NCBI GenBank assembly: GCA_964603545.1
Contig: CAZRVD010000001.1
Span: 68,358-132,357, forward strand
Source: an uncultured Candidatus Saccharibacteria bacterium
GTDB lineage: Bacteria > Patescibacteriota > Minisyncoccia > Phycocordibacterales > DATDWN01
Direction: 5' to 3'
DNA length: 64,000 nucleotides
Position 1 is the first letter of the stretch. Every line of letters starts with the position of its first letter. Under the pieces are notes generated by a model. That model searched no databases. It saw nothing but the letters and a program-made list of their open reading frames with translations, and was not told the origin of the DNA. The translations under genes and the position numbers were made by a program. This document shows, in pieces, positions 11,847 to 51,515 of the stretch.

Positions 11847-11957
11847 TCAAATTTGGCGAACTTCTCGTTCCCAAATTAAAAATACTCATCACCTTACTAC
11901 TTGTAAGGCTCTTCGTCTTTTTAATTTCTCTCGTCGGATTTCACTCAAATTTGAAAG
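11847..11957 (+). repeat. intergenic long-hairpin repeat family 1, copy 1 (after rnc)
   Basis: Terminal CAAATTTG/CAAATTTG, an AU-rich inverted flank (AAAATTAAAAATA / TTTTTAATTT) and apical CCTTAC-TACTT-GTAAGG. Homologous to the copies at 18157, 36238, 39505 and 51402. Confidence 0.7.
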
Positions 11958-11993
11958 CCGATAAAAAACTCAATTTAAGGTGTATTTTTGTGT

Positions 11994-12023
11994 TTGACAG
12001 GCACACCTAAAGTGTGCTACAAT
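11994..12023 (+). promoter_or_regulatory. consensus sigma70-like promoter with an embedded palindromic operator (high-GC cassette B)
   Basis: TTGACA(11994-11999)-N18-TACAAT(12018-12023). The spacer contains the perfect inverted repeat GCACAC-ctaaa-GTGTGC. RBS AAAGGAGGG at 12032-12040. Confidence 0.6.
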
Positions 12024-12042
12024 CGTGGTGAAAGGAGGGCTT

Positions 12043-12456
12043 ATGACTGAGGTCCAAGTGAGGGCTATTTTGGCCGGATTGTTCTTCGGGATTTGGCCGA
12101 TTGTGATGAGTTGGACGGGACTGAAAGGCAACGCCTCAGCAGCAGCGTTCAGCGGTATCACTTTTCTGATCGTGATACCCTTGGCACTGCAGGGAACGAG
12201 TTTCGCAGATTTGGCTCAGGCCAACTGGAAGTTTGCTCTGCTAGCTGGCCTTACTGGCGCATTGGGAGTGATCGCCTTCAACGGCGGTCTCGCCATTACG
12301 AACAAGTATACCGTCAGCACTTTCTTTATCACGATGATCGCAGTTCAGATCATGGTGCCGGCGGTCTACAAGGTGTTCGCGACTCGTTTCGTTACGCCCG
12401 AGCAACTCATTGGATTTACGTTGGCCATGTCGGCGACATATCTCCTGAATAAGTAA
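12043..12456 (+). CDS. small 4-TM membrane protein (EamA/DMT-like half-transporter?), high-GC
   Basis: 137 aa from the ATG at 12043 (the track ORF starts at 12025). Four hydrophobic helices. GC clearly above the backbone. The overlapping ORFs 12093..12452 and 12241..12483 are frame artefacts. Confidence 0.45.
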   Translation: MTEVQVRAILAGLFFGIWPIVMSWTGLKGNASAAAFSGITFLIVIPLALQGTSFADLAQANWKFALLAGLTGALGVIAFNGGLAITNKYTVSTFFITMIAVQIMVPAVYKVFATRFVTPEQLIGFTLAMSATYLLNK

Positions 12457-12461
12457 TTCGT

Positions 12462-12512
12462 AAGCACACTTAAAGAAAGGCACATTCGCTTTTCGAGAGT
12501 GTGCTTTTTCTG
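12462..12512 (+). terminator. hairpin terminator of cassette B that reuses the GCACAC/GTGTGC arms
   Basis: AAGCACACT...(27-nt loop)...AGTGTGCTTTTTC. Confidence 0.45.
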
Positions 12513-12543
12513 TTACAGAAAAATTGTTATACTGAAAAGTGAA

Positions 12544-14802
12544 ATGTATTTAAAAAGTATCGAATTATCTGGGTTTAAATCTTTCGCGAAAAAAAGCGAA
12601 CTCTCTTTTAATTCAAAAGTTTCTGCCATAGTTGGTCCAAACGGTTCTGGAAAGTCTAATGTTGCGGAAGCTTTTCGCTTCGTACTTGGAGAGCAGTCAA
12701 TAAAAAGTCTGCGTGGAAAAAAGGGTGAGGACCTTATCTTTAATGGCGCAGGGGATTTGCCTAGAGCAAACAGGGCGTCTGTAAAGGTAGTTTTTGACAA
12801 CACCTCTAAATTTCTACCAGTGGACTTTGAAACAGTAACAATAGAGCGTGTTGTTCATAGAGACGGGGTGAACGAATATTTAATAAATGGCTCGCAGGTA
12901 CGACTGAGGGATGTGGTAGAGCTTTTGTCGTCTGCACATATTGGCTCCTCTGGGCACCACATTATCTCTCAAGGTGAAGCAGATAGAATACTAAACTCCA
13001 GTCCAAAAGAGAGAAAAAACATGATAGAGGATGCACTTGGTCTCAAGATGTATCAGTACAAAAAAACAGAAAGTGAAAAGAAGTTAGAGAAGACGCGGGA
13101 AAATATTGGGCAGGTGGAGTCTCTAAGACGGGAGATTTTACCTCATATAAAATTTCTTAAAAAACAAGTAGAAAAAGTTGAGAGGGCAATACAAATGAAA
13201 GACGAGCTACAAAGGGAAGCATTAGAGTATTGCAAACGAGAAGACGATTATATTAAAAAGACAGAAGAGAGACTGGCAAAAGAAAAAGAACCATTGAGTC
13301 GGAAAGAAAAAGAACTTGATCACGAACTTAAAACAGCTAAATCTGTTTTGGAAAGAGCCAAAGACAAAGATGGTTTGTCAGACAGACTCATACAACTTGA
13401 AAACGATTTACATAAGACAAGAGATGAGAAAGACGAACTATTTAAAAATTTTGGTCGACTAGACGGGGAGATAAACTCTTTAGTAAAAATGGTTAGAAAG
13501 CAGGAGGAGGTTGCGAGGTCAATCGAGCACAAAACAGTCACCCTAGTTTCTGTAGAAGAACTTTCTGTCAAAATAGAAGAGAGGGTAAAAAAAGCGAGGG
13601 GTTCTCTTGATGTGAATACACTTGCATCAACTTTAGACGAAGTTTTTACTATGTTAGTAGATTTTATTGACCACAACAAAGACAAGGTAGAAATGTCACT
13701 TATCGCAGATGTACAAAGAGATATAGATAACTTACAAGTTTCCAAAAAAGAGTTAGAAGAGAAGTTAGAGAAAATAAACAAGGAAGAAAAAGAATTAACT
13801 CTGGAATATAACAAACTAAAAACAGAAATAGAAAGAGAGAAAGATTCAAACAGAGATGCAGAGAAAGCAGTATTCAGAATAATGGCAGAGTCTGGGGAGG
13901 TGAGATCTAGCCTTCACGACATTACTCTTCAAGAAGAAAACTTGAAGTTGGTAAAAGATGATTTCAAAAGGGAATTAACGGAGCTCGGAGTTTTACTTGG
14001 AGTCCATTTATTACAATTTAATAATTTTGTTATAGAAAATACAGATGAAGACAGACACACACAGGAAGAGAGGAGAAAAAGAATAGAAAAAATAAAAATC
14101 CGTTTAGAGGATTCTGGTGGTGTTGCTGGTACTGAGATTTTGAAAGAATATACAGATGCTACAGAGAGAGATTCTTTTCTTGAAAAGGAACTTTTGGATT
14201 TGCAAAATTCAGCAACTTCACTTGGTACTCTTATAACGGATTTGGATCAGAGACTTTCTTCGGAGTTTAAAACTGGAGTTGAAAAAATAAATACACAGTT
14301 TAAAGAATATTTTTCTATGATGTTTGGAGGTGGGGAAGCGAAGCTTGAAGTTACACTGCCTGTAAAGAAAAAGAAAAAAGATACAGATTTACTTTCTGAA
14401 GATGAAATTGTAGAAGAAGCAGAGTCTGAATCGCTTGAAACCTCCGATGAAGGGATAGAGATTGAGGTAAATTTGCCAAAGAAAAAAGTTAAGGGACTCA
14501 TGATGCTATCTGGTGGAGAGAGAGCGTTGACTTCTATTGCACTTCTTTTTGCAATCTCTCAGGTAAATCCTCCACCTTTTATTATCTTAGATGAAACGGA
14601 TGCGGCGCTAGACGAGGCCAATTCTAAAAAATATGCAGATATGGTTGAGAACCTTTCAAATCGTTCCCAGCTCATTGTTATTACTCACAATAGGGAGACA
14701 ATGTCTCGGGCTGGAATACTTTATGGTGTAACCATGGGCGCAGGAGGTGGCTCAAAACTACTTAGTGTTGCTTTTGAGGAAGCTCTAGCAGTAGCTAAGT
14801 AA
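12544..14802 (+). CDS. smc: SMC-family chromosome segregation ATPase (short form)
   Basis: Walker A VGPNGSGKSN at the N-terminus. Signature and Walker B LSGGERALTSIALLFAI...ILDETDAALD at the C-terminus. Long coiled coil between them. The ATG at 12544 matches the SMC N-terminus MYLKSIELSGFKSF. Confidence 0.8.
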   Translation: MYLKSIELSGFKSFAKKSELSFNSKVSAIVGPNGSGKSNVAEAFRFVLGEQSIKSLRGKKGEDLIFNGAGDLPRANRASVKVVFDNTSKFLPVDFETVTIERVVHRDGVNEYLINGSQVRLRDVVELLSSAHIGSSGHHIISQGEADRILNSSPKERKNMIEDALGLKMYQYKKTESEKKLEKTRENIGQVESLRREILPHIKFLKKQVEKVERAIQMKDELQREALEYCKREDDYIKKTEERLAKEKEPLSRKEKELDHELKTAKSVLERAKDKDGLSDRLIQLENDLHKTRDEKDELFKNFGRLDGEINSLVKMVRKQEEVARSIEHKTVTLVSVEELSVKIEERVKKARGSLDVNTLASTLDEVFTMLVDFIDHNKDKVEMSLIADVQRDIDNLQVSKKELEEKLEKINKEEKELTLEYNKLKTEIEREKDSNRDAEKAVFRIMAESGEVRSSLHDITLQEENLKLVKDDFKRELTELGVLLGVHLLQFNNFVIENTDEDRHTQEERRKRIEKIKIRLEDSGGVAGTEILKEYTDATERDSFLEKELLDLQNSATSLGTLITDLDQRLSSEFKTGVEKINTQFKEYFSMMFGGGEAKLEVTLPVKKKKKDTDLLSEDEIVEEAESESLETSDEGIEIEVNLPKKKVKGLMMLSGGERALTSIALLFAISQVNPPPFIILDETDAALDEANSKKYADMVENLSNRSQLIVITHNRETMSRAGILYGVTMGAGGGSKLLSVAFEEALAVAK

Positions 14803-14827
14803 AGATATGACTTTTTATATACGATGA

Positions 14828-14856
14828 AGGGCGGTCGCGTATTGCACGCGCCGCCC
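14828..14856. terminator. GC-rich hairpin between convergent smc and cassette C
   Basis: GGGCGGTCGCGT-attgc-ACGCGCCGCCC. Confidence 0.45.
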
Positions 14857-14873
14857 AACAAGTCCATGAGGCG

Positions 14874-15089
14874 TCACACCTTCATATAGTGCCGAAGTGG
14901 TACCGTCGGCAATGTTCCGTCGGCATTCCGACGGGGGAGCTGGTCAGGGTGCTCACCCAGGACAACCAGTTCCTGATTGGGGTCCACGTTGATGACGTAG
15001 ACTTCTCTTGGCATCATTGCGAGCCCTCTCTGTATGACTTGTTTCACCTTGTCTCCAGGGCTGACGGTCTGTCCTGTCGCTGTTCCCAT
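14874..15089 (-). CDS. hypothetical 71-aa protein, high-GC cassette C
   Basis: ATG at 15089 preceded by AGAGGAGG. GC-rich. No recognisable family (weak AbrB/MazE-like flavour). Confidence 0.4.
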   Translation of the reverse strand: MGTATGQTVSPGDKVKQVIQRGLAMMPREVYVINVDPNQELVVLGEHPDQLPRRNADGTLPTVPLRHYMKV

Positions 15090-15110
15090 CGAACACCTCC
15101 TCTGACCCAG

Positions 15111-15144
15111 AATTATACCACAATATAAAAAATAATGCAAGTCA
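15111..15144 (-). promoter_or_regulatory. promoter of cassette C (minus: TTGACTTGCAT...TGGTATAAT, extended -10)
   Basis: The reverse complement reads cTTGACTTGCATtattttttatattgTGGTATAATtctgggtcAGAGGAGG. Confidence 0.5.
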
Positions 15145-15227
15145 AGAAGGGAATAGTTGGGGATAATGAATTTTACTAAACTCATCGAGACTATATTTTT
15201 ATGGCGCATCACGGAGTTCGTGAAGAT

Positions 15228-15300
15228 ACGAGTGCGAGGAAAATTTCGAGCACGAAATTATTCCAACGACAGAAAAATATAGTTGAGTAAGAGTTTAGTA
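15228..15300. repeat. repeat family 2, partial/permuted copy (3' of rnr)
   Basis: GAGTGCGAGGAAAATT matches the 3' block of family 2. It is followed by CCAACGACAGAAAAATA..TTGAG.AAGAGTTT, which matches the 5' block. Confidence 0.4.
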
Positions 15301-15317
15301 ATCCGATAAATAAAAAA

Positions 15318-17255
15318 TCAAGAAACAATAGAGTAGTCCAGTACTCTTTTTTCCATATCTGCAGAAACTACTTTGAATTTTACTTTGTCACCAAGAGTAA
15401 ATTTTTGTCCAGTCTTCTCACCTTTGATAGTGTAATTTTTTTCATCAAGTGTATAAAAGTCATCACCTAGATCGCGGATTTTTACCATCCCTTCACACTT
15501 TGTCTCAATTTCTTCAATGTAAATGCCCCATTCAACAACACCAGTTATAGCTCCTTCGAATATTTCTCCAATGTGCTCCGTCATGTATTCAACTTGTTTG
15601 TATTTGATACTTGCTCTTTCTGCTTCGGATGCTTTTTTCTCAAGTTCAGAAGATGCCAAACAAATTCTTTCAAATTTTGTGTATTCATCAATTTCTATTT
15701 TTCCACCTTTTAGTTCGCGTTCAAGGAATCTGTGCACCAATACATCAGGGTATCTTCTGATCGGTGAAGTAAAGTGTGTGTAGTATGCAAATGCAAGAGA
15801 GAAGTGGCCAATATTTTTTGTAGAGTATGTTGCTTTAGCCATACTGCGTATAACTGCGGTGTTTATAAGGTCTTCGTTTGGAGTACCTTTCACATCCTTT
15901 AATAGTTCGTTTAAATCTCTTGAAGTCACCGAACCTTCTTTATTTTTGAGTTCAAAGCCCATAGCTTTTAAAAATACAGCTAGGTCTTGGATTCTGTCTT
16001 TATCTGGTTTTGGATGGATTCTGTATACAGATTGTTTCCCTTTCAATAAGCCCTGGTTTTGAGACATAAAAATATGTTTCGCTACCGCACGGTTGGCCAG
16101 GAGCATAAACTCTTCAACTAGTTTGTGTGTATCTAGTCTAGACTTTTTATAAACTTTTATTGGTTTACCTTTCTCATCTAGAACAAACTTTACTTCCTCT
16201 GTTTCAAAAACCATCGCACCGTTTTGTGATTTTTTCTTTTCTAATTTTTTTGCGATTTCGTTTAGTTTACGAAGCTCGACTTGGTGTGGACCGTCTTGAT
16301 TTCCAAGTATGACTTCGTTTGCGTCTTCGTATGTAAATCTTTTATTGCTATGTATGATTGTTCGGCCAAACCACTCTTCTAGGACCTCTCCACTACCAGT
16401 CATTTTAAAAATTGCAGAGAAAGTGAATTTGTCTTCGTTTGGGTTCAGAGAACAGAGGTCGTTTGAAAGTACTTCTGGAAGCATTGGTATCGTTCTGTCT
16501 ACCAGGTAAACTGATAAGCCTCTTTTTTCTGACTCTCGGTCCAAATCTGATCCAGGAGTAACAAAGTGAGACACATCTGCAATATGCACACCGATCTCAT
16601 ATTTATCGTCACCTAAGTCTTGGAATGAAATAGCGTCATCAAAGTCTTTGGCGTCAAAAGGATCTATGGTCATTGTTGTTACTCCGCGCATGTCGCGTCT
16701 GTTTTTTACTTCTTGATCGAAATTGTTTTTATATTCACTTTTTATTTTATCTGCTTCGGCTTCTACAGAGTGGGGGAATTCAATCCGAAAACCTTTTTCT
16801 AAAACGATGGACTCCATTTCTGTATTGTTTTCACCCTTTTGACCGATAACTTTCATAACTTCTCCTGTTAGTGTGTCCCAGTCAACAATTTTTACCAACA
16901 CTTTCTCTCCCACATTTACATCTGCGTCGTTGGAAAGGGAAATGTCTACATAGAGACGCTGATCATCTGGCATAACAAATTTTTTTCCATCTCTCTCTAT
17001 TATTACCCCCACAAACTCTTCTTTTGCTCTCTTTATTACTTTAACAACCCTACCTTGCTCTCGATTTTTTATCTTCTCACCAGTCAGCTCTATTTCTACT
17101 GTGTCTCCGTGTAGGGCACGATTAACGTCCTTTGGCTGTATCTCAATATTATTTTCTCTGTTCTTTTCTTCTGGATTTGGATCGAAAAAACCAACACCCT
17201 TCGTGTTTATGCTAATAGGTCCAACAAGCGAGTTTTTTTTCATAAGTAGCACCAT
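15318..17255 (-). CDS. rnr: ribonuclease R (RNB family 3'-5' exoribonuclease)
   Basis: RNB catalytic motif HFSLAFAYYTHFTSPIRRYPDVLVHR. Cold-shock/OB domain at the N-terminus and S1 at the C-terminus. 645 aa. Confidence 0.85.
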   Translation of the reverse strand: MVLLMKKNSLVGPISINTKGVGFFDPNPEEKNRENNIEIQPKDVNRALHGDTVEIELTGEKIKNREQGRVVKVIKRAKEEFVGVIIERDGKKFVMPDDQRLYVDISLSNDADVNVGEKVLVKIVDWDTLTGEVMKVIGQKGENNTEMESIVLEKGFRIEFPHSVEAEADKIKSEYKNNFDQEVKNRRDMRGVTTMTIDPFDAKDFDDAISFQDLGDDKYEIGVHIADVSHFVTPGSDLDRESEKRGLSVYLVDRTIPMLPEVLSNDLCSLNPNEDKFTFSAIFKMTGSGEVLEEWFGRTIIHSNKRFTYEDANEVILGNQDGPHQVELRKLNEIAKKLEKKKSQNGAMVFETEEVKFVLDEKGKPIKVYKKSRLDTHKLVEEFMLLANRAVAKHIFMSQNQGLLKGKQSVYRIHPKPDKDRIQDLAVFLKAMGFELKNKEGSVTSRDLNELLKDVKGTPNEDLINTAVIRSMAKATYSTKNIGHFSLAFAYYTHFTSPIRRYPDVLVHRFLERELKGGKIEIDEYTKFERICLASSELEKKASEAERASIKYKQVEYMTEHIGEIFEGAITGVVEWGIYIEEIETKCEGMVKIRDLGDDFYTLDEKNYTIKGEKTGQKFTLGDKVKFKVVSADMEKRVLDYSIVS

Positions 17256-17311
17256 ATTAACAAATATATAGTAATTTGACCATTTGGACTTGTTCTGCTA
17301 GAGTAAGTGGC

Positions 17312-17743: not shown

Positions 17744-17838
17744 ACTAACTAATAAGTTTGTTGACTAAGGTCTATTTTGTTAATAAAATATACAGAGTAA
17801 CCGTGCGTAAAAAGAATTACAATTAACTGATTGAAACT

Positions 17839-18153
17839 ATGGAAACTGATGTAAAATTTTTGGAATTTGTTGTAAAGGCACTAGTTGAAAATCCTGATGA
17901 TGTAAAAATAAATAGAACAGTGGATGAAATGGGAGTTCTTATGACGCTTGATGTACACAAAGACGATATGGGTAAAATAATTGGCCGTGAAGGAAACACA
18001 GCAAAAGCAATAAGAACACTACTTAGAGTTGTAGGGATGAAAAACAATGCAAGAGTTAATCTAAAAATTAACGAACCAGCAGGGGTTATGGGAGAGGTGA
18101 AGACTAGCTCGACCAAATCTCTAGACGATGCCATGAACGATTTGAAGTTATAA
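17839..18153 (+). CDS. KH-domain RNA-binding protein (YlqC/UPF0109 family)
   Basis: KH signature VIGREGNTAKAIRTLL. Sits in the position between rpsP and trmD that is typical of the family. Confidence 0.75.
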   Translation: METDVKFLEFVVKALVENPDDVKINRTVDEMGVLMTLDVHKDDMGKIIGREGNTAKAIRTLLRVVGMKNNARVNLKINEPAGVMGEVKTSSTKSLDDAMNDLKL

Positions 18154-18156
18154 CTT

Positions 18157-18269
18157 CCAAATCTGGCGAACTCCTAGTCTCAAATTTAAAAATATTCGGC
18201 ACCTTACTACCTGTAAGGCTTCTCACATTTTCAAATTCTCAACGTCGGATTTCATCCAGATTGTGAAAG
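18157..18269 (+). repeat. long-hairpin repeat family 1, copy 2 (after the KH gene)
   Basis: 5' CCAAATCTGG, 3' CCAGATTGTG (compensatory to the 5' end), apical CCTTAC-TACCT-GTAAGG. Confidence 0.7.
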
Positions 18270-18366
18270 TTCTAATATTTAAATCCCTAAAACGCTAATT
18301 TTATATACTGCATCTTACATAAAAGGTTTCCTTGATAAAGGATGCTTTTTATGTTATAAATACGAA

Positions 18367-35500: not shown

Positions 35501-36232
35501 CCTGCTGTTGTCTGTTCTGTTTCTGGAACTATTTCAGAGGTTAAGGTTACTGATAAGGAAAAAATTATCACCATCACCCCTGACCTAGAAGATAGAAAGA
35601 AATCAAAAGACAGAATAGACTACTCAACATCTCTAAACAGAACGATATTAGTAAAAGTGGGGGATGAAGTTAAAAAGGGTGACATAATCACAGACGGTTC
35701 AGCAGACATAGATGAACTTTTCAAATATGCTGGTAAAGATAAAACTGTTGACTATATTATTCACGAAATTAACAAACCATACGAACTTCAAGGGGAAAAT
35801 GTTTCCAGAAAACACATTGAAACTATTGTCAGGCAAATGTTCTCTAGAAAGAGAATTAAAACTACAGGAGATACTTACTTTGTAGCCGGGGACATTGTAG
35901 AAGCAAATCTTCTTACAGAGGAAAATGCAAAAATGAAAACTGAAGGAAAGGAAGAGGCAAAAGCAGAGCCAGTCGTGATGGGTATCACAGATGTGTCACT
36001 TTCAAGACATAGTTTCCTTTCAGCGGCTTCATTCCAACACACAACACGAATCCTTATCTCAAGTGCCATAAGAGGTAATGCAGATAAACTAGCTGGTCTT
36101 ATGGAAAACGTTATCTTAGGAAAACTTATCCCAGCGGGTACTGGTTTTAAGGGAAGTAGCAAGGCGGAGATGATAGCTAAGATGCGAGCAGAGAGACCTG
36201 TAGTATTCGACGAGAGCACTCGCTACCAGTAA
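32537..36232 (+). CDS. rpoC: DNA-directed RNA polymerase beta-prime subunit
   Basis: Zn-binding CYCGKYRG...CEKCGVEI. Catalytic NADFDGD. The ATG at 32537 matches RpoC N-termini; the track ORF starts at 32486. Confidence 0.95.
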   Translation: MTTNKNYMKNRINTDANDFETIALKIASPERIKEWSFGEVTKPETINYRTQRSEKNGLFDEKIFGPDKDHECYCGKYRGIRYKGIICEKCGVEITRSIVRRERMGHIELATVVSHIWFLKSMPSRISLVLGIPVADIEKVIYFAGYIITKVSEEDRTRYLKDLDSEYKSKIKSLQDEKTKEKLKEMLLNAKRDIDSIQEGKVLDEVEYYNFGMKYGTMFEASIGAEAIYNIFKKLDLNKLLEQLHVELEKAGSLEVGKVNKRIGVVSSMINSNIRPEWMFLTHIPIIPPALRPMVPLDGGRYATSDVNDLYRRVINRNNRLKKLKEISAPDVILRNEKRILQEAVDALIDNSIRHGSATSALNQSQRRALKSLADNLKGKRGIFRQNLLGKRVDYSGRSVIVVGPDLHLNQCGLPKHMALELFKPFVISQLLKSELAYNIKGASKLIDDGIPEVWAILEEVISDRFVLLNRAPTLHRLGIQAFKPILIEGNAIQVHPLVCSAFNADFDGDQMAVHVPLSDEAQLEAREIMASDKNILKPGSGDPTVSAKMLDITLGCYWMTKGIDGEMGEGKFFSSPNAAITAYDLGAVSFRAKIKVLPSDTEKYSQFGGKLFETTVGRLLFNSVLPKDYAFINNEFDRKKISALVDDLIEKYGIENVPVIIDKIKTFGFKYATYSGVTWGLDDVAIPEGKKAIILKSKEKSDSIVGHFNAGLISKEERLRQTIEIWQGAKMEVEKLMPGALPKNGSVLDMVLSGTRGSMSNITQMAGMKGLIANNAGETIEFPIISCSKEGLTPLEYFITTHGARKGLTDTALNTAKSGYLTRKMFVVAQDTIIVEEDCGTKEGVVIDKFAISGIETPIAKHVKGRFLSEDVSTPDGKVLFKKDHLVSKADAQAIEASGVTKVWVRSPLSCKTPNGICIKCYGTDLGKNKVVELGEAVGTVAGQAIGEPGTQLTMNTKHAGAASVSGDIVQGLPRVEELFEKRKPKNPAVVCSVSGTISEVKVTDKEKIITITPDLEDRKKSKDRIDYSTSLNRTILVKVGDEVKKGDIITDGSADIDELFKYAGKDKTVDYIIHEINKPYELQGENVSRKHIETIVRQMFSRKRIKTTGDTYFVAGDIVEANLLTEENAKMKTEGKEEAKAEPVVMGITDVSLSRHSFLSAASFQHTTRILISSAIRGNADKLAGLMENVILGKLIPAGTGFKGSSKAEMIAKMRAERPVVFDESTRYQ

Positions 36233-36237
36233 AAGTT

Positions 36238-36347
36238 TCCAAATTTGGCCAATTTCTTTGTCAGAGTTCAAAAAATAATTCTCACCGTACTAGTTGTACG
36301 ACTCGAATTATTTTTATCCTCTTTCGCGAAATTGTCTCAAATTTGAA
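36238..36347 (+). repeat. long-hairpin repeat family 1, copy 3 (after rpoC)
   Basis: Terminal CAAATTTGG / CAAATTTG. Apical helix is CGTAC-tagtt-GTACG (compensatory relative to CCTTAC/GTAAGG). Confidence 0.65.
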
Positions 36348-36392
36348 AATTTTACGAGAATTCTGATGATAAAGTTTTAAACTCAAAACTAA

Positions 36393-38168
36393 ATGTCCTC
36401 AGTAGATCAAATCAAATCAAAAATAGATATCGTAAGCCTAGTTTCATCTTATATAAAACTGGAAAAGGCTGGAACGAACTTTAAAGGCAAGTGTCCTTTT
36501 CACAACGAAAAGACGCCGTCCTTTTTCGTCTCTCAAGATAGGGGCAACTATTATTGTTTTGGCTGTCACGCTAAAGGCGACATCTTTACTTTTGTACAGG
36601 AGTTTGAAGGGTTGGATTTTGTTGGAGCGCTTAAAGTTTTGGCAGAAAAGGCAGGAGTAGAGCTTGAGCAGTACAAAAGCGGAGAGAAGTCAGAAAAAGA
36701 CAGACTTTTTTCTGTTCTAGAAAAAGCAGTTTTCTTTTACGAAAAAAAATTATCTGAAAATAAGATTGCCTTGGACTATGTTCACAGTAGGGGCATCACA
36801 GACGAAACAGTAAAAAATTTCCGTATTGGTTATGCACCACTTGACTGGAGATTACTTTATGACTATCTGAAAGAAAAAGGTGTGACAGAAAAAGATATGC
36901 TTGCTGTAGGGCTCATAAAACAAAAAGATTCTACTTTTTCTAGCTCCTCTTATTATGATGTTTTTCGTGGAAGAATTATGTTTCCAATAGCAGACTCTTC
37001 CGGAAGAGTAGTTGGTTTTTCTGGAAGAATCTTGGTTCCTGACGAAAAGTCTCCAAAATATTTAAACACTCCTGAAACAGAACTCTATAATAAATCGGAA
37101 ATTCTTTTTGGGTTAGATAAGGCCAAGAAAGATATAAAACTAAAAGACTATTCTATTTTGGTAGAGGGTCAAATGGATCTTGTAATGATGCACCAGGTAG
37201 GGATGTCTAATACTGTAGCTTCTTCTGGCACGGCAGTTACAGCTGATGAAAACAAGAAAGATGAAGATAATAAAAGATCTCAGGATCACCTTGTTAAACT
37301 TCGCCGTCTTTCAAATCGCATAGTCATGTCTTTTGATTCAGATAGTGCTGGTTTCTCGGCTTCTAATAGAACTGCTAAACTTGCTTTGGCTCTAGATATG
37401 GACTTGAAAATTGTTAAATTGCCGAAAGGTAAGGACCCTGCAGAACTTGCAAAAGAGGATCCGGAGTTACTGAAAGAGTGTTTTAGGAACTCTAAATCAA
37501 TAGTAGATTTCTACGTTGATTACTTATTAGATCAAGATTTAAACCCTAGAGATTTAGCAACAGAAATAAGGAAAAAAGTATTACCATATGTAGCAGAAAT
37601 GGCACCTACAAATCAATCTTCGTCAATAATGAGTATTAACCAAAAAACTTTTATCAATCCAGAAGCATTACGTGCCGACCTAAATACTATAACTACTGGC
37701 CAAACCCCTTATGTTCCAGTAATAAATACTTCTCCACCTGGAAAAAGAGTGGATAGTATAGAGAGAAAAATATTTGGAATTATACTTTGGACAAAGGAGA
37801 AAAAAAATAAAGAAGAAGATGTCAAAGTTGAGATAGATGTAGAGAGTCGGGCAAAAGCAATTTTAGGAAAAAGATTGGATGAACTTGAAAAAGAATTTCA
37901 AAAAGATAAGGAACTACTTTTATTTGAGACGGAAAGCTATTATAATGATAAGGCAAATTTAGAAAAAGATATTGACGAACTCCTAGTCTCACTTGAGGAA
38001 GAATATTTAAAAAAAGATTTGTCTCTTGCCATGATAAATCTTCAAAAGGCCGAGCAGAAAAGGGAAAGTGGGGAGGTCTTAAAATTTTTAGAAGAGTGCC
38101 AGAGAATAACACAAAGAATAAACACAATAAGAACAATCAAAAACGCATTCCAAGATAATACAAAATGA
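36393..38168 (+). CDS. dnaG: DNA primase
   Basis: Zinc ribbon [11 protein letters not shown]...CFGC. Toprim core EGQMDLV...DSD. Confidence 0.85.
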
Positions 38169-39490
38169 AAAAAGGTAAAAAATCAAAAAAAAATAAATCT
38201 GTCTCACGGAAGTCTACAAAAAAAGTAGCAAGAAAACCTGAGAAGAAAGTGAAGAAGGTAAGGGTATCTAGTAGACAGCCGAAGCGTAAGCTACGAAAGC
38301 CTAAGAAAATATCCGTACCTAAAATTCGTTTAAAAAAGAAAAACAAGTCTTCTCTTGCCATGAGAGCCTCTAAATCCGTGCCAAAAAGTACCAAAGTACT
38401 TAAAAAGGCAGATAAACAGCACGATGGAATGGCGAGACTTCTTCACAAAGGAAAGGAGAGGGGCTATATAACGTTTGATGAAATTTTGAAGGAGTTTCCT
38501 ACTGTTGAGGATGACATTCTTTTCCTAGAAGAACTTTATGATAAGTTTTCAGTAAGTGGTATAGACGTTTTGGAAGGAGGCGGACTTCTTGACGCTTCTA
38601 CTACAGAAGATTTAGTAAGTAAAAAATATACATATGGCAGAGGCAATGAGTCTTCGTACGATTCTATTCAGATGTACCTAAAGGAAATTGGTCAGTACCA
38701 ACTTATTTCTGGTGGAATGGAAAAAGAATTGGCAAAAAGAATTGAGGCGGGGGATGTGGAAGCAAAAACTCTTTTAGCTCGAGCAAATCTCCGTTTGGTT
38801 GTTTCTATCGCAAAAAAATATGCAAATCGAAGTGCGGATCTGACACTTCTAGATCTTATTCAAGAGGGAAATCTAGGTTTGTTTAAGGCGGTAGATAAAT
38901 TTGATTGGACAAAGGGTTACAAGTTTTCAACATATGCAACTTGGTGGATACGCCAAGCTATCACTCGTGCCTTAGCAGACCAAAGCAGAACAATTCGTGT
39001 ACCAGTACACATGGTAGAGACAATCGCAAAATACAAACAAGTAGTAAGACGACTTTCACAAGACTTGGGCAGAGATCCACTTCCAGAGGAAATTGCAGTT
39101 GAGATGAATCTTAGTGTTGATAAAGTTTATACAATTGAAAAAATTGACCAAAGTACACTTTCTCTTGAAGCACCGATAGGGGATGAAGGAGATGAAAGTA
39201 AAAGTAAGCTCGGGGATTTCTTGGCTGATGATAAAATACTTTCTCCAGAACAAGAAGCATCACGCAGAATTATAGGAGACCAAGTTCGTGAAATACTAAA
39301 CGACCTTCCAGAAAAAGAAAGAAAAATTCTAGAACTTAGACATGGACTTGTCGACGGCGTTACTCATACACTTGAAGAAGTGGGGAAAGAGTTCGGAGTT
39401 ACGAGAGAGAGAATTCGACAAATCGAAGCTAAGGCGCATGAGAAAATCCGCCAGCATGACAAGATCAATAGGTTAAGGAACTATTACTAG
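38165..39490 (+). CDS. rpoD: RNA polymerase sigma-70 factor with a Lys-rich N-terminal extension
   Basis: Regions 2-4 present ([30 protein letters not shown]). ~80-aa KKxK-rich N-terminus. Confidence 0.9.
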
Positions 39491-39504
39491 GCTCGGGTCT
39501 TTTT

Positions 39505-39595
39505 ACTCAATCTCATCTTCTAAAATTTGAAAATAATCATCACCTTACTACTTGTAAGGCTCTTCATATTTTAAAATTTTATAAGCGACCTTGAG
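39505..39595 (+). repeat. long-hairpin repeat family 1, copy 4 (after rpoD)
   Basis: Its own terminal helix GCTCgGGTC / GACCttGAGC. Shared core TCTAAAATTTGAAAATAATCATCACCTTACTACTTGTAAGGCTCTTCATATTTTAAAATTTTATAAGCGACC. Confidence 0.65.
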
Positions 39596-39626
39596 CAAAA
39601 ATCCTCCAAGTTTCATAGCTTCATTA

Positions 39627-39704
39627 AATACAAGAACACTCTCAATTGAGAGTGTTCTTGTATTGACAAAAGGAAATAATTATGCTAGTGTCTTGCGCAG
39701 GAGG
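39627..39704 (+). promoter_or_regulatory. 32-bp perfect palindrome abutting a TTGACA promoter (cassette G)
   Basis: ACAAGAACACTCTC-AATT-GAGAGTGTTCTTGT at 39627-39658, then TTGACA(39662-67)-N17-TAGTGT, then AGGAGG at 39699-704. Confidence 0.5.
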
Positions 39705-44611: not shown

Positions 44612-44612
44612 G

Positions 44613-45570: not shown

Positions 45571-45612
45571 ATGGCTATGAAGGCAAAGAAGGCTGCGAAG
45601 AAGACCGCCTAG
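45571..45612 (+). CDS. tiny Lys/Ala-rich ORF (13 aa, MAMKAKKAAKKTA) with strong SD and terminator
   Basis: TATAAT at 45529-34, AAAGGAG at 45559-65, ATG at 45571, TAG at 45610-12, then the hairpin terminator at 45650-45674. Confidence 0.25.
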   Translation: MAMKAKKAAKKTA

Positions 45613-45649
45613 AAGCGGTAGGTTGCGATCTTCGCGACTGCACTATCCA

Positions 45650-45674
45650 GGGGGCACCGTGTGCCCCCTTTTTT
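45650..45674. terminator. bidirectional hairpin terminator
   Basis: GGGGGCAC-cgt-GTGCCCCC TTTTTT. Confidence 0.6.
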
Positions 45675-45678
45675 ATAT

Positions 45679-46260: not shown

Positions 46261-46326
46261 AAAATTCAGTATAACAGGTATTCCACGTTCGTAAAATATT
46301 AATTAATTTTAAGACATTGCGCAGGA

Positions 46327-46465
46327 AATTAGAAAACAACGACGAGCGAAAAGAAGCCTGAAGCACTGTCTGAGGGTAATCCCGAGTTTGCGAGAAGGCT
46401 CTGGAGTGAGGAAGATTGTTTTCTTGATTTCCGAGCAAAGCAAAATCAAAGCTTTGATTTATGCG
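46327..46465. repeat. intergenic repeat family 2, copy B (3' of hisS)
   Basis: Aligns with 5764-5899 across ~135 bp (AACGACGAG...CGAGTTTGCGAGAAGGCT...TTTTCTTGATTTCCGAGCAAAG...TTTATGCG). Confidence 0.6.
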
Positions 46466-46475
46466 GGTCTTAAAA

Positions 46476-47756: not shown

Positions 47757-47776
47757 ATGGGTTATTGTATCAGAAT

Positions 47777-48535
47777 ATGGAAGCTTCACAAGAAAAGGAT
47801 GTGTATGTTGTATATAAAAATCTGGGCGAGACTCCACTTGAATGTATACAAAGATTTAAAAAAAATAAGCCGGAATTTGGAAGTTCTAGCGTGACCTATG
47901 CAGGAAGGCTGGACCCCATGGCAGAGGGGCTACTTATTTTACTTACAAACGAAAAAGTAAACGAGAAGGAGAAATATTTGGATTTACCAAAAACGTATGA
48001 ATTTGAGGTTCTGTGGGGCTTTGAAACGGATACACTAGATATATTAGGAAAAATTTCAAATTCAAAATTTCAAATTTCAAAACAGGAAGAGGTTGAAGAT
48101 TATTTAAAAAAAACGGTTGGAAAATTTGAACAAAAATATCCAGATTATTCGTCAAAGCCAGTGCAAGGCAAACCTTTGTTTCAGTGGGCTAGGGAAGATA
48201 GACTTTCAGAAATAGACATTCCAAAACACGAGGTTGAAGTTTTTGAAGCGAAGTATATTTCTAGAAGGATTATTTCAAAAGAGGATTTGCTTAATGACAT
48301 TGATTTTAAAATAGGAAAAGTAAGGGGAGACTTTAGACAGAAGGAAATACTTGAGAAGTGGAAAGAAGTTTTGAGTGGAACGAGTGAGGAAAACTTTGTA
48401 ATTGATAAATTAGAATTAAAAGTTTCTAGTGGTTTCTATGTTAGGCAATTTGTTTCTGATATGGCAGAGGACTTAGGGATGCTTGCAACTACTTTTCATA
48501 TAAAGAGGACAAAGATTGGTGATTGCGAAATTTAA
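47777..48535 (+). CDS. truB: TruB-family tRNA pseudouridine synthase (divergent)
   Basis: Catalytic Asp context YAGRLDPMAEGLLILLT (compare GTLDPLATGLL). Confidence 0.6.
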   Translation: MEASQEKDVYVVYKNLGETPLECIQRFKKNKPEFGSSSVTYAGRLDPMAEGLLILLTNEKVNEKEKYLDLPKTYEFEVLWGFETDTLDILGKISNSKFQISKQEEVEDYLKKTVGKFEQKYPDYSSKPVQGKPLFQWAREDRLSEIDIPKHEVEVFEAKYISRRIISKEDLLNDIDFKIGKVRGDFRQKEILEKWKEVLSGTSEENFVIDKLELKVSSGFYVRQFVSDMAEDLGMLATTFHIKRTKIGDCEI

Positions 48536-48652
48536 AATGAAAGAAATACACAGTTTTGATTGTAATAGGCGTTTACAGACTATTTCTTATGTGATTAGAT
48601 ATTATAGGAGGATCCTCGTTTCAATTTGAGGGTCTCTAGGGAGTGTGATTTG

Positions 48653-49003
48653 ATGCCGGCTGAGGACACACGGAAATCTGAAGCGTTGGTGGCGATTGGG
48701 CAAACCCTGGTCACCGCCCGTCGACGTTCGGGTCTGAGTTTGACTCAACTCGTTCGTTCAACCCGTAACCCGCGCCTTTCAGGTGTGGGTGACAAGTTCG
48801 TTCTCGCTGAGAAGGGGACGTTTGAGGGCAAGGAAGACCTGCTTCGGGAAATCATTCAGGCTTACCACCTGAACACTTCCGAGGACGTGGAGGTGGAACG
48901 CTGTCTGGCCGTCACGTTCCCGAAGACGGATGCCAACTCTCGCAGAAGTGGTGTTCCCGGCCATCCAAGGCCTTCACTCGGAGGGTACAGACCCTCGGCG
49001 TAG
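48653..49003 (+). CDS. XRE-family HTH regulator, high-GC cassette K1
   Basis: AIGQTLVTARRRSGLSLTQLV is a helix-turn-helix. ATG at 48653 after GGGAGTGTGA. GC-rich. The C-terminal ~30 aa are low confidence. Confidence 0.45.
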   Translation: MPAEDTRKSEALVAIGQTLVTARRRSGLSLTQLVRSTRNPRLSGVGDKFVLAEKGTFEGKEDLLREIIQAYHLNTSEDVEVERCLAVTFPKTDANSRRSGVPGHPRPSLGGYRPSA

Positions 49004-49023
49004 AAAAAGCACACAACAGGGGC

Positions 49024-49058
49024 CGGTCGCGCATGCGCGACCGAGCTCTTTTTCTTAT
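49024..49058 (+). terminator. terminator after K1
   Basis: CGGTCGCGC-at-GCGCGACCG agctcTTTTTCTT. Confidence 0.55.
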
Positions 49059-49061
49059 GGT

Positions 49062-49128
49062 CATGCGACCATTCTGGGTTGCGCACGGTTGCGGTCATAC
49101 GACCACTGCTCGCTTTCAGCGGTTGCAT
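49062..49128 (-). repeat. two adjacent TGGTCGYATGACC-core sites (family 3 copy plus 33-bp direct-repeat copy 1), minus strand
   Basis: The minus strand reads CGCTGAAAGCGAGCAGTGGTCGTATGACC-GC-AACCGTGCGCAACCCAGAATGGTCGCATGACCA. Confidence 0.6.
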
Positions 49129-49172
49129 AAAGTTTAAGTAAGTGTAGATTGATATTTAGGGAGGCAGACAGG

Positions 49173-49499
49173 ATGCTGAGCGGAGTCCAGCTGAACGAGG
49201 TAGTGAAGGATGTCAAGATATTTCGGATGAAGAGAGGACTGGAGAGAAAAGACCTGGCCTTGGAGGCTCAGGTTGGAGTTAGGTTTGTCCGAAACGTGGA
49301 AGAAGAGAGAAGGCTCAAGTGGAGGCTTCCACTAGTGCAGAAGCTTCTGCGGGTTCTGGTGGCACTGGATCTCAAACTTCATGAAGAGGCCATCAAAAAG
49401 AAAGTCAGCCAAGTTGCTCATTCACCTCGCAAGAAGAGGCGTTGCAGATTCGACCGGCGTCGTGGCGGAGTTGTTCTGAATCGGCGCTGTCGCAGGTAA
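49173..49499 (+). CDS. XRE-family HTH regulator, high-GC cassette K2
   Basis: MKRGLERKDLALEAQVGVRFVRNVEE is a helix-turn-helix. ATG at 49173 after GGGAGG. Basic Arg-rich tail. Confidence 0.5.
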   Translation: MLSGVQLNEVVKDVKIFRMKRGLERKDLALEAQVGVRFVRNVEEERRLKWRLPLVQKLLRVLVALDLKLHEEAIKKKVSQVAHSPRKKRRCRFDRRRGGVVLNRRCRR

Positions 49500-49518
49500 G
49501 TTCTTCGTTTTCGAAAAA

Positions 49519-49565
49519 GGCTCTGGGTGTGTGGCGTCACACACCCAGAGCCTTCGTTCGTTTTG
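49519..49565 (+). terminator. 15-bp perfect-stem terminator after K2
   Basis: GGCTCTGGGTGTGTG-gcg-tCACACACCCAGAGCC ttcgttcgTTTT. Confidence 0.65.
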
Positions 49566-49566
49566 G

Positions 49567-49599
49567 TCATACGACCTCTGCTCGCTTTCAGCGATTGTT
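49567..49599 (-). repeat. 33-bp direct-repeat copy 2 (31/33 identical to 49094-49126), abutting the typA stop codon
   Basis: GGTCATACGACCtCTGCTCGCTTTCAGCGaTTG versus GGTCATACGACCaCTGCTCGCTTTCAGCGgTTG. Confidence 0.6.
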
Positions 49600-51388
49600 A
49601 TTTTCTAACTGATTTCTTTCTCAATCGGACGGATTTTGGGGTTATCTCAATATACTCATCATCCGACATGATTTCCATAGCTTTTTCAATATCTAGTTTA
49701 AAAGTAGCGGCAAGGTAAACAGAACCATCTGAACTAGAAGATCGCATGTTTGTTAGTTGTTTACCTTTTGTTGGGTTTACTATTAGATCTTCACCCTTTG
49801 ATACGTTTCCAATAACCATTCCAACATAAACTTCTGTTCCGGGGTCTATGTATAGTGTTCCTCTTTGTTGTAGGTTATCTAATGCAAAAGCAAGTGCTTT
49901 ACCTTTTTCCATTGAAACCATTGAACCGTAGCTAGTACGATTTATTTCTCCAACATATTCTCTGAATTCAACAAATCGTGAAGAAAGTATTCCGAGACCT
50001 TTTGTATCTACTACAAATTGTCCACGGTATCCCAAAAGTCCTCTTGTTGGTATTTCAAACGTCAGCCGTTGTGTTCCGTGACCTTGTTTTACGTTCATTA
50101 GAACTCCGCGTCTTTCTGTAAGTCTTGAAATAACTGAGCCAGCGATTTCGTCTGGAACATCCACCGTGACTTCTTCAAAAGGTTCCATTTTTATCCCATT
50201 AACTTCTTTTATAATAACTTGTGGCTGTGAGACTTGGAGTTCAAAACCTTCTCGTCTCATATTTTCACAAAGTATTGCAATATGAAGTTCACCACGACCA
50301 TATACGGTGTAGTATTCGTTGTTGTTCCAATCCACTTTTAGTCCGACGTTTATTTCCAGCTCCTTTTCAAGTCTGTCGCGGATTTGTCTACCTGTAACAA
50401 ACTTTCCTTCCTTTCCTGCGAAAGGTGAGTCGTTAACTAAAAAGTTTAGAGAAATTGTAGGTTCATCAATGTTGATAGATGGTAGTGGTTCCGCATCTTC
50501 ACTTTGGCAAATAGTGTCTCCAATATAAACTGTTGGAAGTCCAGCAATCATCACAATGTCTCCTGCGGAAGCCTCTTTTATTTCTACTCTTTTGGTTCCT
50601 TCAAAACTGAAAAGTTTAGTAAGCTTTCCAGAAACAGTAGCTGGCGCTTTTGCATCGTGATGTTGTTTCACAAACACGGCATCATTGTTTTTAATAACAC
50701 CTTCATAAACTCTACAAACTGCAAGTCGTCCAAGGAAGTTGTCGTATGCTAAATTAAACGATTGCAGTCTTGCGGGCGCGGTTTTGTCACCTGTAGCAGG
50801 TGGGACTTCTTTTAAAATTGTTTCAAGAAGGGGGGTAAGGTCCTTGCTTTCATCTATTAGTTTCATTTTTGCAATACCTTGTCTTCCTATAGCATACACA
50901 GTTGTGAAATTAAGCTGTTCATCATTTGCTCCAAGTTCCATAAACAATTCCAAAACCATTTCGTGTACATCATCTGGTCTTGCAGCTGGTTTATCTATTT
51001 TGTTTATAATAACGATTGGTTTAAGTCCGAGTTCAAGGGATTTTTTCAAAACAAAACGAGTTTGTGGCATTGGCCCTTCTTGGGCGTCTACTAAAAGTAA
51101 AACTGTATCAATAGAACGTAGTACGCGTTCTACTTCAGAACCAAAGTCTGAGTGGCCTGGAGTATCCACAATGTTGATTTTTGTTACTTCTCGGCCTGAA
51201 TCAGCTGGGGGATAGTAAACTGATGTATTTTTTGCATATATAGTAATACCACGCTCTTGTTCTAGAGCGTTTGAGTCCATGGTTACACCTTCCTCGGTTA
51301 CCATGCCAGTCTGGCGCATTAGGGCGTCAGTTAGGGTTGTTTTGCCGTGGTCGACGTGGGCTATAATTGCTATGTTACGAATTTCCAT
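49598..51388 (-). CDS. typA: GTP-binding protein TypA/BipA
   Basis: N-terminus MEIRNIAIIAHVDHGKTTLTDALM. EF-G-like domains. 596 aa. Confidence 0.85.
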   Translation of the reverse strand: MEIRNIAIIAHVDHGKTTLTDALMRQTGMVTEEGVTMDSNALEQERGITIYAKNTSVYYPPADSGREVTKINIVDTPGHSDFGSEVERVLRSIDTVLLLVDAQEGPMPQTRFVLKKSLELGLKPIVIINKIDKPAARPDDVHEMVLELFMELGANDEQLNFTTVYAIGRQGIAKMKLIDESKDLTPLLETILKEVPPATGDKTAPARLQSFNLAYDNFLGRLAVCRVYEGVIKNNDAVFVKQHHDAKAPATVSGKLTKLFSFEGTKRVEIKEASAGDIVMIAGLPTVYIGDTICQSEDAEPLPSINIDEPTISLNFLVNDSPFAGKEGKFVTGRQIRDRLEKELEINVGLKVDWNNNEYYTVYGRGELHIAILCENMRREGFELQVSQPQVIIKEVNGIKMEPFEEVTVDVPDEIAGSVISRLTERRGVLMNVKQGHGTQRLTFEIPTRGLLGYRGQFVVDTKGLGILSSRFVEFREYVGEINRTSYGSMVSMEKGKALAFALDNLQQRGTLYIDPGTEVYVGMVIGNVSKGEDLIVNPTKGKQLTNMRSSSSDGSVYLAATFKLDIEKAMEIMSDDEYIEITPKSVRLRKKSVRK

Positions 51389-51401
51389 ATTGTTGTGAAC
51401 T

Positions 51402-51515
51402 TCCAGATTTGGCCAATCTCATCTTCTAAAATTTAAAAATACTCCTCACCTTAGCGCTAACTAAGGCTCGTCACATTTTTAAATTTTATAAGCGACCTTG
51501 TCTCAAATCTGAAAG
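51402..51515 (+). repeat. long-hairpin repeat family 1, copy 5 (typA-dedA divergent spacer)
   Basis: Terminal CCAGATTTGG / CAAATCTG (compensatory pair). Apical CCTTAG-cgctaa-CTAAGG (compensatory pair). Confidence 0.7.

Follow-up and report, generated by a model that had tools for sequence, protein, structure and literature searches.

The DNA considered here, hereafter the window, is a stretch of 64,000 nucleotides (nt) from an uncultured Candidatus Saccharibacteria bacterium (contig CAZRVD010000001.1 of assembly GCA_964603545.1, positions 68,358 to 132,357), and our subject is family 1, a long-hairpin intergenic repeat that the window carries in several copies. A preliminary description of the sequence had reported five related copies, all in one orientation, in the spacers that follow rnc, the KH gene khpA, rpoC and rpoD and in the spacer between typA and dedA. 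A covariance model (R1) built from 19 copies found exactly five copies in the window when hits were taken at E<=1, all in the same orientation and with extents slightly larger than those first given, and a sixth copy was absent at that threshold. The gene context also stood up, including at the level of Pfam families, which support rnc, identify the genes around copy 2 as KH_KhpA-B and tRNA_m1G_MT, confirm DnaG, and identify the neighbours of copy 5 as TypA/BipA and DedA (VTT domain). Four of the copies start 0-4 nt past the stop codons of rnc, khpA, rpoC and rpoD. The copies are as follows, each with the strand on which it folds better.

11839-11961, minus strand: copy 1, architecture A (R1 119 bits, E 1e-22), apical module at 11890-11910; directly 3' of the rnc stop codon TAG (11837-11839).
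18149-18272, minus strand: copy 2, architecture A (R1 131 bits), apical module at 18200-18220; overlaps the khpA stop codon TAA (18151-18153), with the trmD start 94 nt beyond.
36231-36353, minus strand: copy 3, architecture A with the variant apical stem GUCGUAC/GUACGGU (R1 94 bits); after the rpoC stop codon TAA (36230-36232), with the dnaG start at 36393.
39488-39613, minus strand: copy 4, architecture C, outer helix GCUCNGAGGAUUUUU.../...AAAAAGACCNGAGC (R1 82.5 bits), apical module at 39541-39561; after the rpoD stop codon TAG (39488-39490).
51395-51519, minus strand: copy 5, architecture A with the apical stem GCCUUAG/CUAAGGU (R1 106.6 bits); in the divergent typA/dedA spacer, its minus-strand 3' end 6-10 nt from the typA start codon (51386-51388, minus strand).

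Each of these copies folds as one long hairpin, with z scores against dinucleotide shuffles of -3.3 to -9.2 on the plus strand and -6.2 to -9.6 on the minus strand, and in every one of them the minus strand is the more stable and the better paired. The fold energies are -39 to -44 kcal/mol on the minus strand versus -34 to -38 on the plus strand for copy 1, -49 to -51 versus -25 to -26 for copy 2, and -48 to -52 versus -31 to -36 for copy 5. The apical variants first noted are correct, being CCTTAC/GTAAGG in copies 1, 2 and 4, CCTTAG/CTAAGG in copy 5 and CGTAC/GTACG in copy 3, and copy 4 does have a different outer helix. The shorter extent first given to copy 4 (39505-39595) does not hold, as this copy is not truncated but full-length, with an alternative basal architecture that is seen elsewhere.

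Architecture, covariation and the selected strand

Family 1 extends well beyond the window. The 21-nt apical core was scanned against one genome per species, and metagenome loci and viral contigs were also scanned; it matched 19 loci in six metagenome-assembled genomes (MAGs), titled Candidatus Saccharibacteria or Zambryskibacteria, together with 20 metagenome loci and zero viral contigs. Syntenic loci were added through RpoD homologues, and R1 identified 63 distinct copies in about 0.5 Mb, 5 of them in the window and 58 in other loci (given L numbers below) from related assemblies of the Patescibacteria, or Candidate Phyla Radiation (CPR). The taxonomic labels in this set disagree, in that the element-bearing third-party annotation (TPA) MAGs are titled 'uncultured Candidatus Saccharibacteria', while the closest RpoD proteins (96-97% identity at most) are named Parcubacteria, Zambryskibacteria or Paceibacterota. 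We accordingly assign the organism no more narrowly than to the CPR/Patescibacteria.

The elements are A+T-rich and about 115-125 nt long, with an A+U-rich stem base, and can be sorted by their base into at least three architectures, A, B and C, built around one common apical module. Architecture A, that of window copies 1, 2, 3 and 5, has the ends (A)AACTTYC...GRAAGTT(T), the bases preceding AAC being A/T purine-rich. Architectures B and C lack the AAC/GTT ends; in B the sequence of the outer helix differs in every copy and the loops CUAGGCG/CAACAACG are conserved, and C comprises window copy 4, L021 4226-4349 and L020 4-102. On the selected strand, defined below, the apical module reads ...GA-N-RA-[G-NNK-UAY / loop ending UA / RUA-MNN-U]-GA-N-GA..., with tandem purine·purine (G·A) internal loops on its flanks and a closing G·U pair that is present in every copy with a parseable apex. 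The middle three pairs of the apical stem covary (CCU/AGG, AUG/CAU, ACG/CGU, CUG/CAG, UCG/CGG), and differing apical stems occur within one genome, for example GCCUUAC and GAUGUAC in L003. The module is nevertheless essentially invariant across architectures, such that the centre of the element is conserved and its ends are variable, and an invariant apex of this kind fits a recognition site. Short frames starting with ATG are present in some copies and are not conserved, and a small open reading frame (ORF) within the element was rejected.

The pairing of family-1 hairpins is clearly under selection. In a MAFFT alignment to which no structure had been fitted, RNAalifold predicted 35 pairs, 18 of which have compensatory double changes, and a MAFFT alignment of the 12 architecture-B copies gave 45 pairs, 27 of them with double changes, including the outer helix that is unique to each copy. 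When the 42 architecture-A copies were aligned to the model, 95.2% of cells were paired and double changes were present in 30 of the 35 pairs (184 cells), an alignment that is biased towards its own model in a way that the MAFFT-based results are not. None of 500 shuffles of these 42 copies matched any of five covariation measures, a control that is inflated by kinship among copies, and sliding the 3' partner by 1-3 columns reduced pairing to 32-56%. The compensatory changes in several helices first seen in five copies are thus borne out on a larger set. Recent, near-identical copies, the finding that was to count against such selection, are not what this set contains, median pairwise identity among copies being 0.65. 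The family also matches none that is known, as Rfam gave no match at the five copies (at the gathering score, or at E<=1 across the whole window) or at the elements of four other loci. We therefore describe, with high confidence, a new superfamily of interspersed non-coding long imperfect palindromes, which has at least three basal architectures around one apical module, lies at ORF boundaries in a clade of the CPR/Patescibacteria, in most cases with a stop codon on one side and a terminator or the next gene on the other, and retains its pairing through compensatory change.

The strand that was folded in the preliminary description is not the selected one. Its reverse complement forms the more stable fold in all of the 58 copies tested, the difference being 3 to 25 kcal/mol, and the same preference emerges when energies are set aside. 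In an energy-free count, in which one arm was aligned against the reverse complement of the other, the mismatches on the reverse-complement strand comprised 218 G·T and 62 A·C; G·T exceeded A·C in 51 copies and equalled it in 7, and A·C exceeded G·T in none. In the consensus structure there are 122 G·U against 13 A·C, or 80 against 13 over 20 pairs when the invariant pair is removed, and architecture B has the same asymmetry (about 50 G·U against 4 A·C). Canonical cells amount to 95.2% on the reverse-complement strand versus 87.8% on the gene strand, and 73% of the unpaired positions on the selected strand are purines. A mutation bias behind the G·U asymmetry was considered and rejected because the genomic skew acts in the opposite direction: the gene strand of the window is G-rich (G>C), from which ordinary mutational skew would be expected to put G·U pairs on the other strand of the element, and the asymmetry belongs to the element itself. 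The G·U excess and the better fold of the reverse complement together identify the structurally selected strand as that antisense to the mRNA of the neighbouring upstream gene.

This strand evidence argues against the simple 3' untranslated region (UTR) RNA or RNase III substrate that was first suggested. A cis-acting hairpin in the 3' UTR or intercistronic part of the mRNA would determine how stable the upstream cistron is, by blocking 3'-5' exonucleases or by being processed by RNase III or another enzyme. Transcription on the gene strand is certain, the element lying either between stop codon and terminator or 9-28 nt before a start codon, the sense RNA folds at -20 to -45 kcal/mol, the copies are strongly conserved in place, and the genome encodes both RNase III and an RNB-domain exonuclease. 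Precedents exist in the effects on transcripts of bacterial interspersed mosaic elements (BIMEs), enterobacterial repetitive intergenic consensus (ERIC) sequences and Correia elements, as presented in the background of PMC3049150. However, A·C mismatches that break the sense fold are tolerated and G·U pairs that would keep it are avoided, leaving the sense strand at the lower of the two pairing levels given above (87.8% against 95.2%), and the conserved loops become pyrimidine·pyrimidine mismatches in mRNA. If any stable hairpin sufficed, the stabler orientation should be common, and it is found to be rare; in addition, two copies belong to 5' leaders and have the opposite sense there. As such, we consider an mRNA element unlikely.

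A second possibility is that the apex, CCTTAC-N5-GTAAGG, is a palindromic site in double-stranded DNA, or a cruciform, bound by a dimeric protein such as a nucleoid protein, a gyrase-type factor or a roadblock, in the manner of BIMEs. The apex is indeed an invariant 6-5-6 palindrome centred in a long A+T-rich inverted repeat, and the copies lie at gene ends, which are sites at which supercoiling accumulates. A double-stranded site predicts neither the strand asymmetry nor the orientation bias, would have to accommodate the several apical stems present in the single genome of L003, and leaves the covariation of the entire 50-bp stem, rather than of a binding site only, without a counterpart. 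We regard it as improbable.

Placement at gene ends and turnover among relatives

Of the 56 informative copies, 46 have the selected strand's 3' end within -16 to +3 nt of a stop codon whose gene is on the opposite strand; the element thus starts where the upstream gene stops, in antisense to it. All but a few copies overlap ORFs by 16 nt or less. The inverted orientation after stop codons was found in four copies. The orientation bias is approximately 85%, and the orientation that is more stable as mRNA is the rarer one. Window copy 5 and L044 16177-16300 each precede a start codon by 6-8 nt and have their selected strand in the same sense as the gene that begins there, and in about 12 copies the start codon of the next gene is only 9-28 nt beyond the element. 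The selected strand is the C-rich strand in 52 of 62 copies. Transcription and replication are confounded in this orientation: L004 6856-6978, a copy in a minority-strand operon, follows transcription, and the two 5'-leader copies follow the skew. Three features close to window copies bear on the signals in these spacers.

11994-12023, plus strand: near-consensus sigma-70-type promoter (TTGACA, 18 nt, TGnTACAAT; 11 of 12 matches in a consensus scan), 33 nt past copy 1.
39627-39664, no strand assigned: perfect 19+19-nt palindrome (inverted repeat I7, 100% complementary), past copy 4.
51538-51552, minus strand: terminator-like G+C-rich hairpin followed by TTTT (consensus scan), 14-18 nt upstream of copy 5.

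As the promoter past copy 1 shows, signals for the next gene are located in the spacer beyond the element. The palindrome past copy 4 lies where relatives with empty sites (L041, L042) have the rpoD terminator, and is followed by a TTGACA hexamer; in relatives that do not have the post-rpoD element the stop codon is followed directly by a terminator and then by a TTGACA promoter. Canonical bidirectional terminators lie 1-25 nt beyond the element in at least 6 of the 46 typical copies, that is, 1-25 nt upstream of it on the selected strand. Upstream of the hairpin at 51538-51552 there is no minus-strand gene for it to terminate, and the arrangement at typA may be an attenuator-like leader.

These arrangements bear directly on an intrinsic terminator of the upstream gene, a role that had also been raised at first. 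The element is a hairpin directly after stop codons, and in most copies no other recognisable terminator precedes the next gene, as would be expected of a terminator. Its stem base is A+U-rich, however, the flank in the direction of the gene is A-rich and not U-rich, and many copies are inside operons, 9-28 nt before the next start codon. Canonical terminators are found past the element in at least six copies, and relatives without it have them in that same place, directly after the stop codon; the element itself is therefore not the terminator, and we find this explanation hardly credible.

The evidence of strand asymmetry all favours the minus strand, and this would be in agreement with a structured RNA made from that strand, as an antisense RNA, as an insulator against transcription from a downstream promoter into the 3' end of the gene or, at copy 5, as a 5'-leader module, with a protein that recognises the G·A/G·U apex. 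The 5' end of the strand always faces the promoter-bearing spacer and its 3' end abuts the ORF; copy 5 and L044 16177-16300, given their distance of 6-8 nt from start codons, are transcribed as leaders there; and with GUUU(U)A after it the hairpin looks like a weak terminator. As a terminator it would be a poor one, with its A+U-rich stem base and a U-tract of only 3-4 nt. Furthermore, no promoter motif is conserved at a fixed distance upstream of the selected strand, and no convincing internal promoter was apparent in the element consensus when read by eye. The bidirectional terminators of at least six copies lie immediately upstream on this strand, and the next start codon is within 28 nt in about 12 copies. 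About 40% of copies have either no room for a promoter on the selected strand or a terminator in the way, and are as such left with no source for a transcript. We consider an antisense or leader RNA distinctly unlikely as an explanation of the family, and less likely than an mRNA element.

Occupancy of individual sites differs among relatives. The post-rpoC site is filled in the window and in L041, L046 and L047, whose copies are orthologous to window copy 3, and is not filled in L042-L045 and L048. After rpoD there is a copy of architecture C in the window and of architecture A in L005 and L043, and none in L041, L042 and L044; in total, two orthologous sites hold different architectures in different species. 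L018, whose genes are approximately 78% nucleotide-identical to those of the window, has no rnc copy and has copies after nusB and L32 that are absent from the window, and L006 has a copy after gyrB that is likewise absent from it. Where orthologous copies could be paired, three such pairs are 83-88% identical, compared with 57% for the third codon positions of the adjoining gene, and most changes at their paired positions preserve pairing. A copy does not consistently resemble its orthologues more than it resembles copies from other loci. Conservation in place may therefore reflect either strong constraint or concerted evolution.

Presence that varies across species, in an inverted repeat that is intergenic and multi-copy, with copies nested in or adjoining other small repeats, might suggest an ordinary MITE (miniature inverted-repeat transposable element) of a DDE transposase, as selfish DNA decaying in place, in which the apparent covariation arose either because both terminal inverted repeats followed a single transposase or because template switching corrected a quasi-palindrome. 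No consistent target-site duplication was found in flanks aligned on the conserved ends, empty and filled sites being too divergent for exact comparison; a TAA or TA duplication seemed possible by eye, and the aligned flanks gave it no support. No solo ends or longer autonomous partner were present in about 400 kb, and there was no transposase among the ORFs of the window or near the copies examined, and no integrase among the ORFs of the window. Family 1 has no conserved terminal inverted repeats shared by its members, the ends differing among architectures A, B and C, and it is the centre that is invariant. The copies are old and divergent and yet 95% paired, third codon positions change much faster than orthologous copies do, and template switching would not yield an excess of G·U on one strand. 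A plain MITE, one of the candidates first named, is not supported by these observations, and we judge a MITE origin very improbable.

Other repeats and structures at gene ends

Family 1 is not the only structured repeat at gene ends in this clade. A second family consists of branched elements of approximately 80-110 nt, enclosed by CUUUUUWGGA...UCCWAAAAAG and situated right after stop codons. Its window copy, at about 5790-5910, is just past the dnaE stop codon (5924, minus strand) and folds better antisense to dnaE (-37 versus -23 kcal/mol). Further copies are at L045 3630-3705 and 6847-6922, L042 2522-2598, L048 5246-5327, L025 158-239, L003 1550-1611 and L009 698-744; the family occurs in the rpoC-dnaG and rpoD-downstream spacers of relatives, and in L045 in both orientations. 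A small element of 72 nt (GAGAAG-hairpin-GCAAGACCUUGAGC...) is inserted in the family-1 copy at L031 2921-3116, truncates that at L037 844-970, and also occurs at L009 624-683, from which it follows that the small repeats of the clade nest and cluster. At L044 8168-8265, in the rpoC-dnaG spacer and directly after the stop codon, is an A+U-rich hairpin of approximately 100 nt and unrelated sequence, which suggests that there are further hairpin families with the same placement.

The usual ground state of the gene ends that receive these repeats is a palindromic terminator at the stop codon. Canonical bidirectional terminators are perfect 16-17-bp palindromes that begin at or within the stop codon (for example TAAACTAAAACCACTC/GAGTGGTTTTAGTTTA), and within the window lie at 3547-3582, 10049-10083, 49517-49554 and 53438-53511. 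Near rnc, the nusB-rnc spacer of the window has a separate imperfect hairpin (11057-11131, 34-nt arms, 76% complementary) where L018 has an inverted family-1 copy. The rnc-smc spacer of L018 (about 4400-4700) contains an unrelated G+C-rich stretch of approximately 300 nt that looks structured and may be an RNA gene, the counterpart of which in the window is copy 1 and a 143-amino-acid ORF with no Pfam match (12025-12456). Elsewhere in the window, its sole tRNA gene (60249-60320) lies inside a 21-bp leader-trailer helix (60233-60335, 95% complementary), which adds about 10 pairs on each side to the acceptor stem and resembles a processing stalk. Finally, a 38-nt direct repeat (GTTGCGGTCATACGACCACTGCTCGCTTTCAGCGGTTG) is present in three copies, 61-89% identical, at 49054-49125 and 49560-49597; the stretch around them is richer in G+C and includes two ORFs without a Pfam match (48626-49003, 49149-49499).

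Known palindromic elements and the favoured mechanism

Family 1 is previously undescribed, and belongs among the bacterial interspersed palindromic elements. Our literature search found no description of such repeats, of attC sites or of MITEs in Saccharibacteria or Patescibacteria, and blastn found nothing in 5,426 E. coli genomes (E<=0.01), phages or plasmids. As extragenic, high-copy, imperfect palindromes at gene 3' ends and within operons, family-1 elements resemble repetitive extragenic palindromes (REPs), BIMEs and REPINs, the hairpin-forming elements with a REP at each end. REPINs are long hairpins of about 100 nt in which pairing is maintained by compensatory change, and the family-1 hairpin is preserved in the same way. 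They are said to have been interpreted by Bertels and Rainey in 2011, Nunvar in 2010 and Ton-Hoang in 2012 as mobilised in the form of single-stranded hairpins, without target-site duplication. In REPINs, however, the two terminal REPs are conserved and the centre is variable, whereas in family 1 the centre is invariant and the ends vary. Family 1 also lacks the 5' GTAG/GGAG tetranucleotide of REPs, is A+T-rich and 115-125 nt long rather than a short G+C-rich palindrome, and, unlike REP elements and the REPINs associated with RayT, is strongly biased in orientation relative to the neighbouring gene. A tblastn search with E. coli RayT of 493 kb of loci and the window, which sample a few percent of each genome, returned only noise (E>1).

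ERIC sequences, also called intergenic repeat units (IRUs, 127 bp), are similar to family 1 in size, and each is a single long imperfect palindrome that is transcribed, intergenic, old and shared across species. Effects of ERIC on the upstream transcript depend on its orientation, according to the background of PMC3049150. No sequence similarity was found in the same search of E. coli genomes, the phyla are different, and family 1 is distinguished by modular basal architectures, by abutting stop codons and by a selected strand that is antisense to the gene. The attC sites of integrons are 57-141-bp, structure-defined hairpins of single-stranded DNA that work through their bottom strand, which in sedentary chromosomal integrons lies on the leading-strand template (PMC5371416). 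Family 1 is comparable, in logic only, in being an imperfect inverted repeat directly 3' of ORFs with a length within that range, a folded strand that is antisense to the ORF and has unpaired or extrahelical features, and a preference of that strand for the C-rich strand (the 52 of 62 copies above). In contrast to attC, it has no R''/R' core sites (RYYYAAC/GTTRRRY), and the conserved base and varying apex of attC are the reverse of what is seen in family 1. It adjoins housekeeping genes that possess their own transcription signals (promoters and terminators) and not arrays of promoterless cassettes, and the window contains neither intI nor attI.

Correia, BOX and RUP elements are likewise small interspersed repeats that form stable structures when transcribed. 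BOX is modular, and MITE-like repeats are over-represented at gene ends and sometimes clustered or nested (PMC3049150); family-1 copies also adjoin, or are interrupted by, a second repeat family. In contrast to these elements, family 1 has no duplication of TA or any other target site, no related insertion sequence was found, and its copies are divergent, with extensive covariation and an invariant, RNA-like apical motif. Family 1 thus fails the defining tests of sequence and architecture of REP/REPIN, ERIC and attC, and its pattern of conservation is the reverse of all three.

Among the mechanisms considered, we tentatively prefer an element analogous to REP, ERIC or attC that is selected as a single-stranded hairpin, probably of DNA, and recognised at its apex; an mRNA element ranks after this, and an antisense or leader RNA after that. 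The selected fold forms on the strand complementary to the mRNA of the upstream gene, and, given that approximately 40% of copies have no room for a promoter on that strand, single-stranded DNA is its most likely form. The molecule under selection would be a hairpin of single-stranded DNA or an extruded cruciform arm, and a strand-specific DNA enzyme would recognise the invariant apex and copy, replace or recombine the elements. The mechanistic logic would be that of REPIN-RAYT elements, of IS200/IS605 ends and of the bottom strands of integron attC sites. Filled and empty sites, the exchange of one architecture for another at orthologous sites, nesting, and the missing target-site duplication all fit such a DNA hairpin, and the last of these is as expected for mechanisms of the HUH or recombinase type. 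The mRNA copy of the element would then be a by-product, a hairpin that is less stable and contains A·C mismatches and loops of pyrimidines, and the orientation bias may result from counter-selection of the very stable strand as RNA immediately after a stop codon. Genome compaction would account for how closely the elements adjoin ORF ends.

Several observations weigh against this DNA hairpin. There is no candidate enzyme among the ORFs of the window and no RayT in the 493 kb searched, a weak argument given that this is a few percent of each genome. Identity of 83-88% between orthologues, set against 57% at third codon positions, is what a function for the host would predict, and selfish DNA would need frequent conversion or re-insertion to be conserved to this extent. 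The conserved apex and variable ends are the reverse of REPIN, MITE and attC alike, and the placement at stop codons and the orientation bias need the extra assumptions of compaction and counter-selection. The copy in the minority-strand operon of L004 (6856-6978) follows transcription and not the skew. A G·U pair that never varies and tandem G·A loops are no less characteristic of RNA motifs than of DNA, and at copy 5 and L044 16177-16300 an mRNA leader almost certainly includes the selected strand. The identity of family 1 as a structure-selected family of hairpins is therefore secure, and its mechanism is unproven. It is possible, if on balance doubtful, that these elements are substrates of an undescribed strand-specific, hairpin-recognising system of the CPR, involving either a new DNA enzyme that acts on the G·U/G·A apex of a folded single strand, in recombination or transposition like that of attC or REPINs, or a new structured RNA antisense to gene 3' ends with a dedicated protein.

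The genomes of CPR/Patescibacteria are tiny and compact, and their non-coding DNA is almost uncharacterised. In this clade family 1 accounts for up to about 1% of the DNA, at 5 copies in 64 kb, and is under purifying selection at least as strong as that on coding DNA, with textbook covariation on a strand that should not be RNA. The covariance model is ready for use in annotating these genomes, and family 1 raises a testable question, that of which strand and which molecule is folded. If the fold is that of DNA, it would imply an enzyme that recognises hairpins and a way for small genomes to shuffle or mark the ends of their genes. If it is that of RNA, family 1 would represent a new and abundant class of structured RNA with a well-defined motif resembling a protein-binding site.

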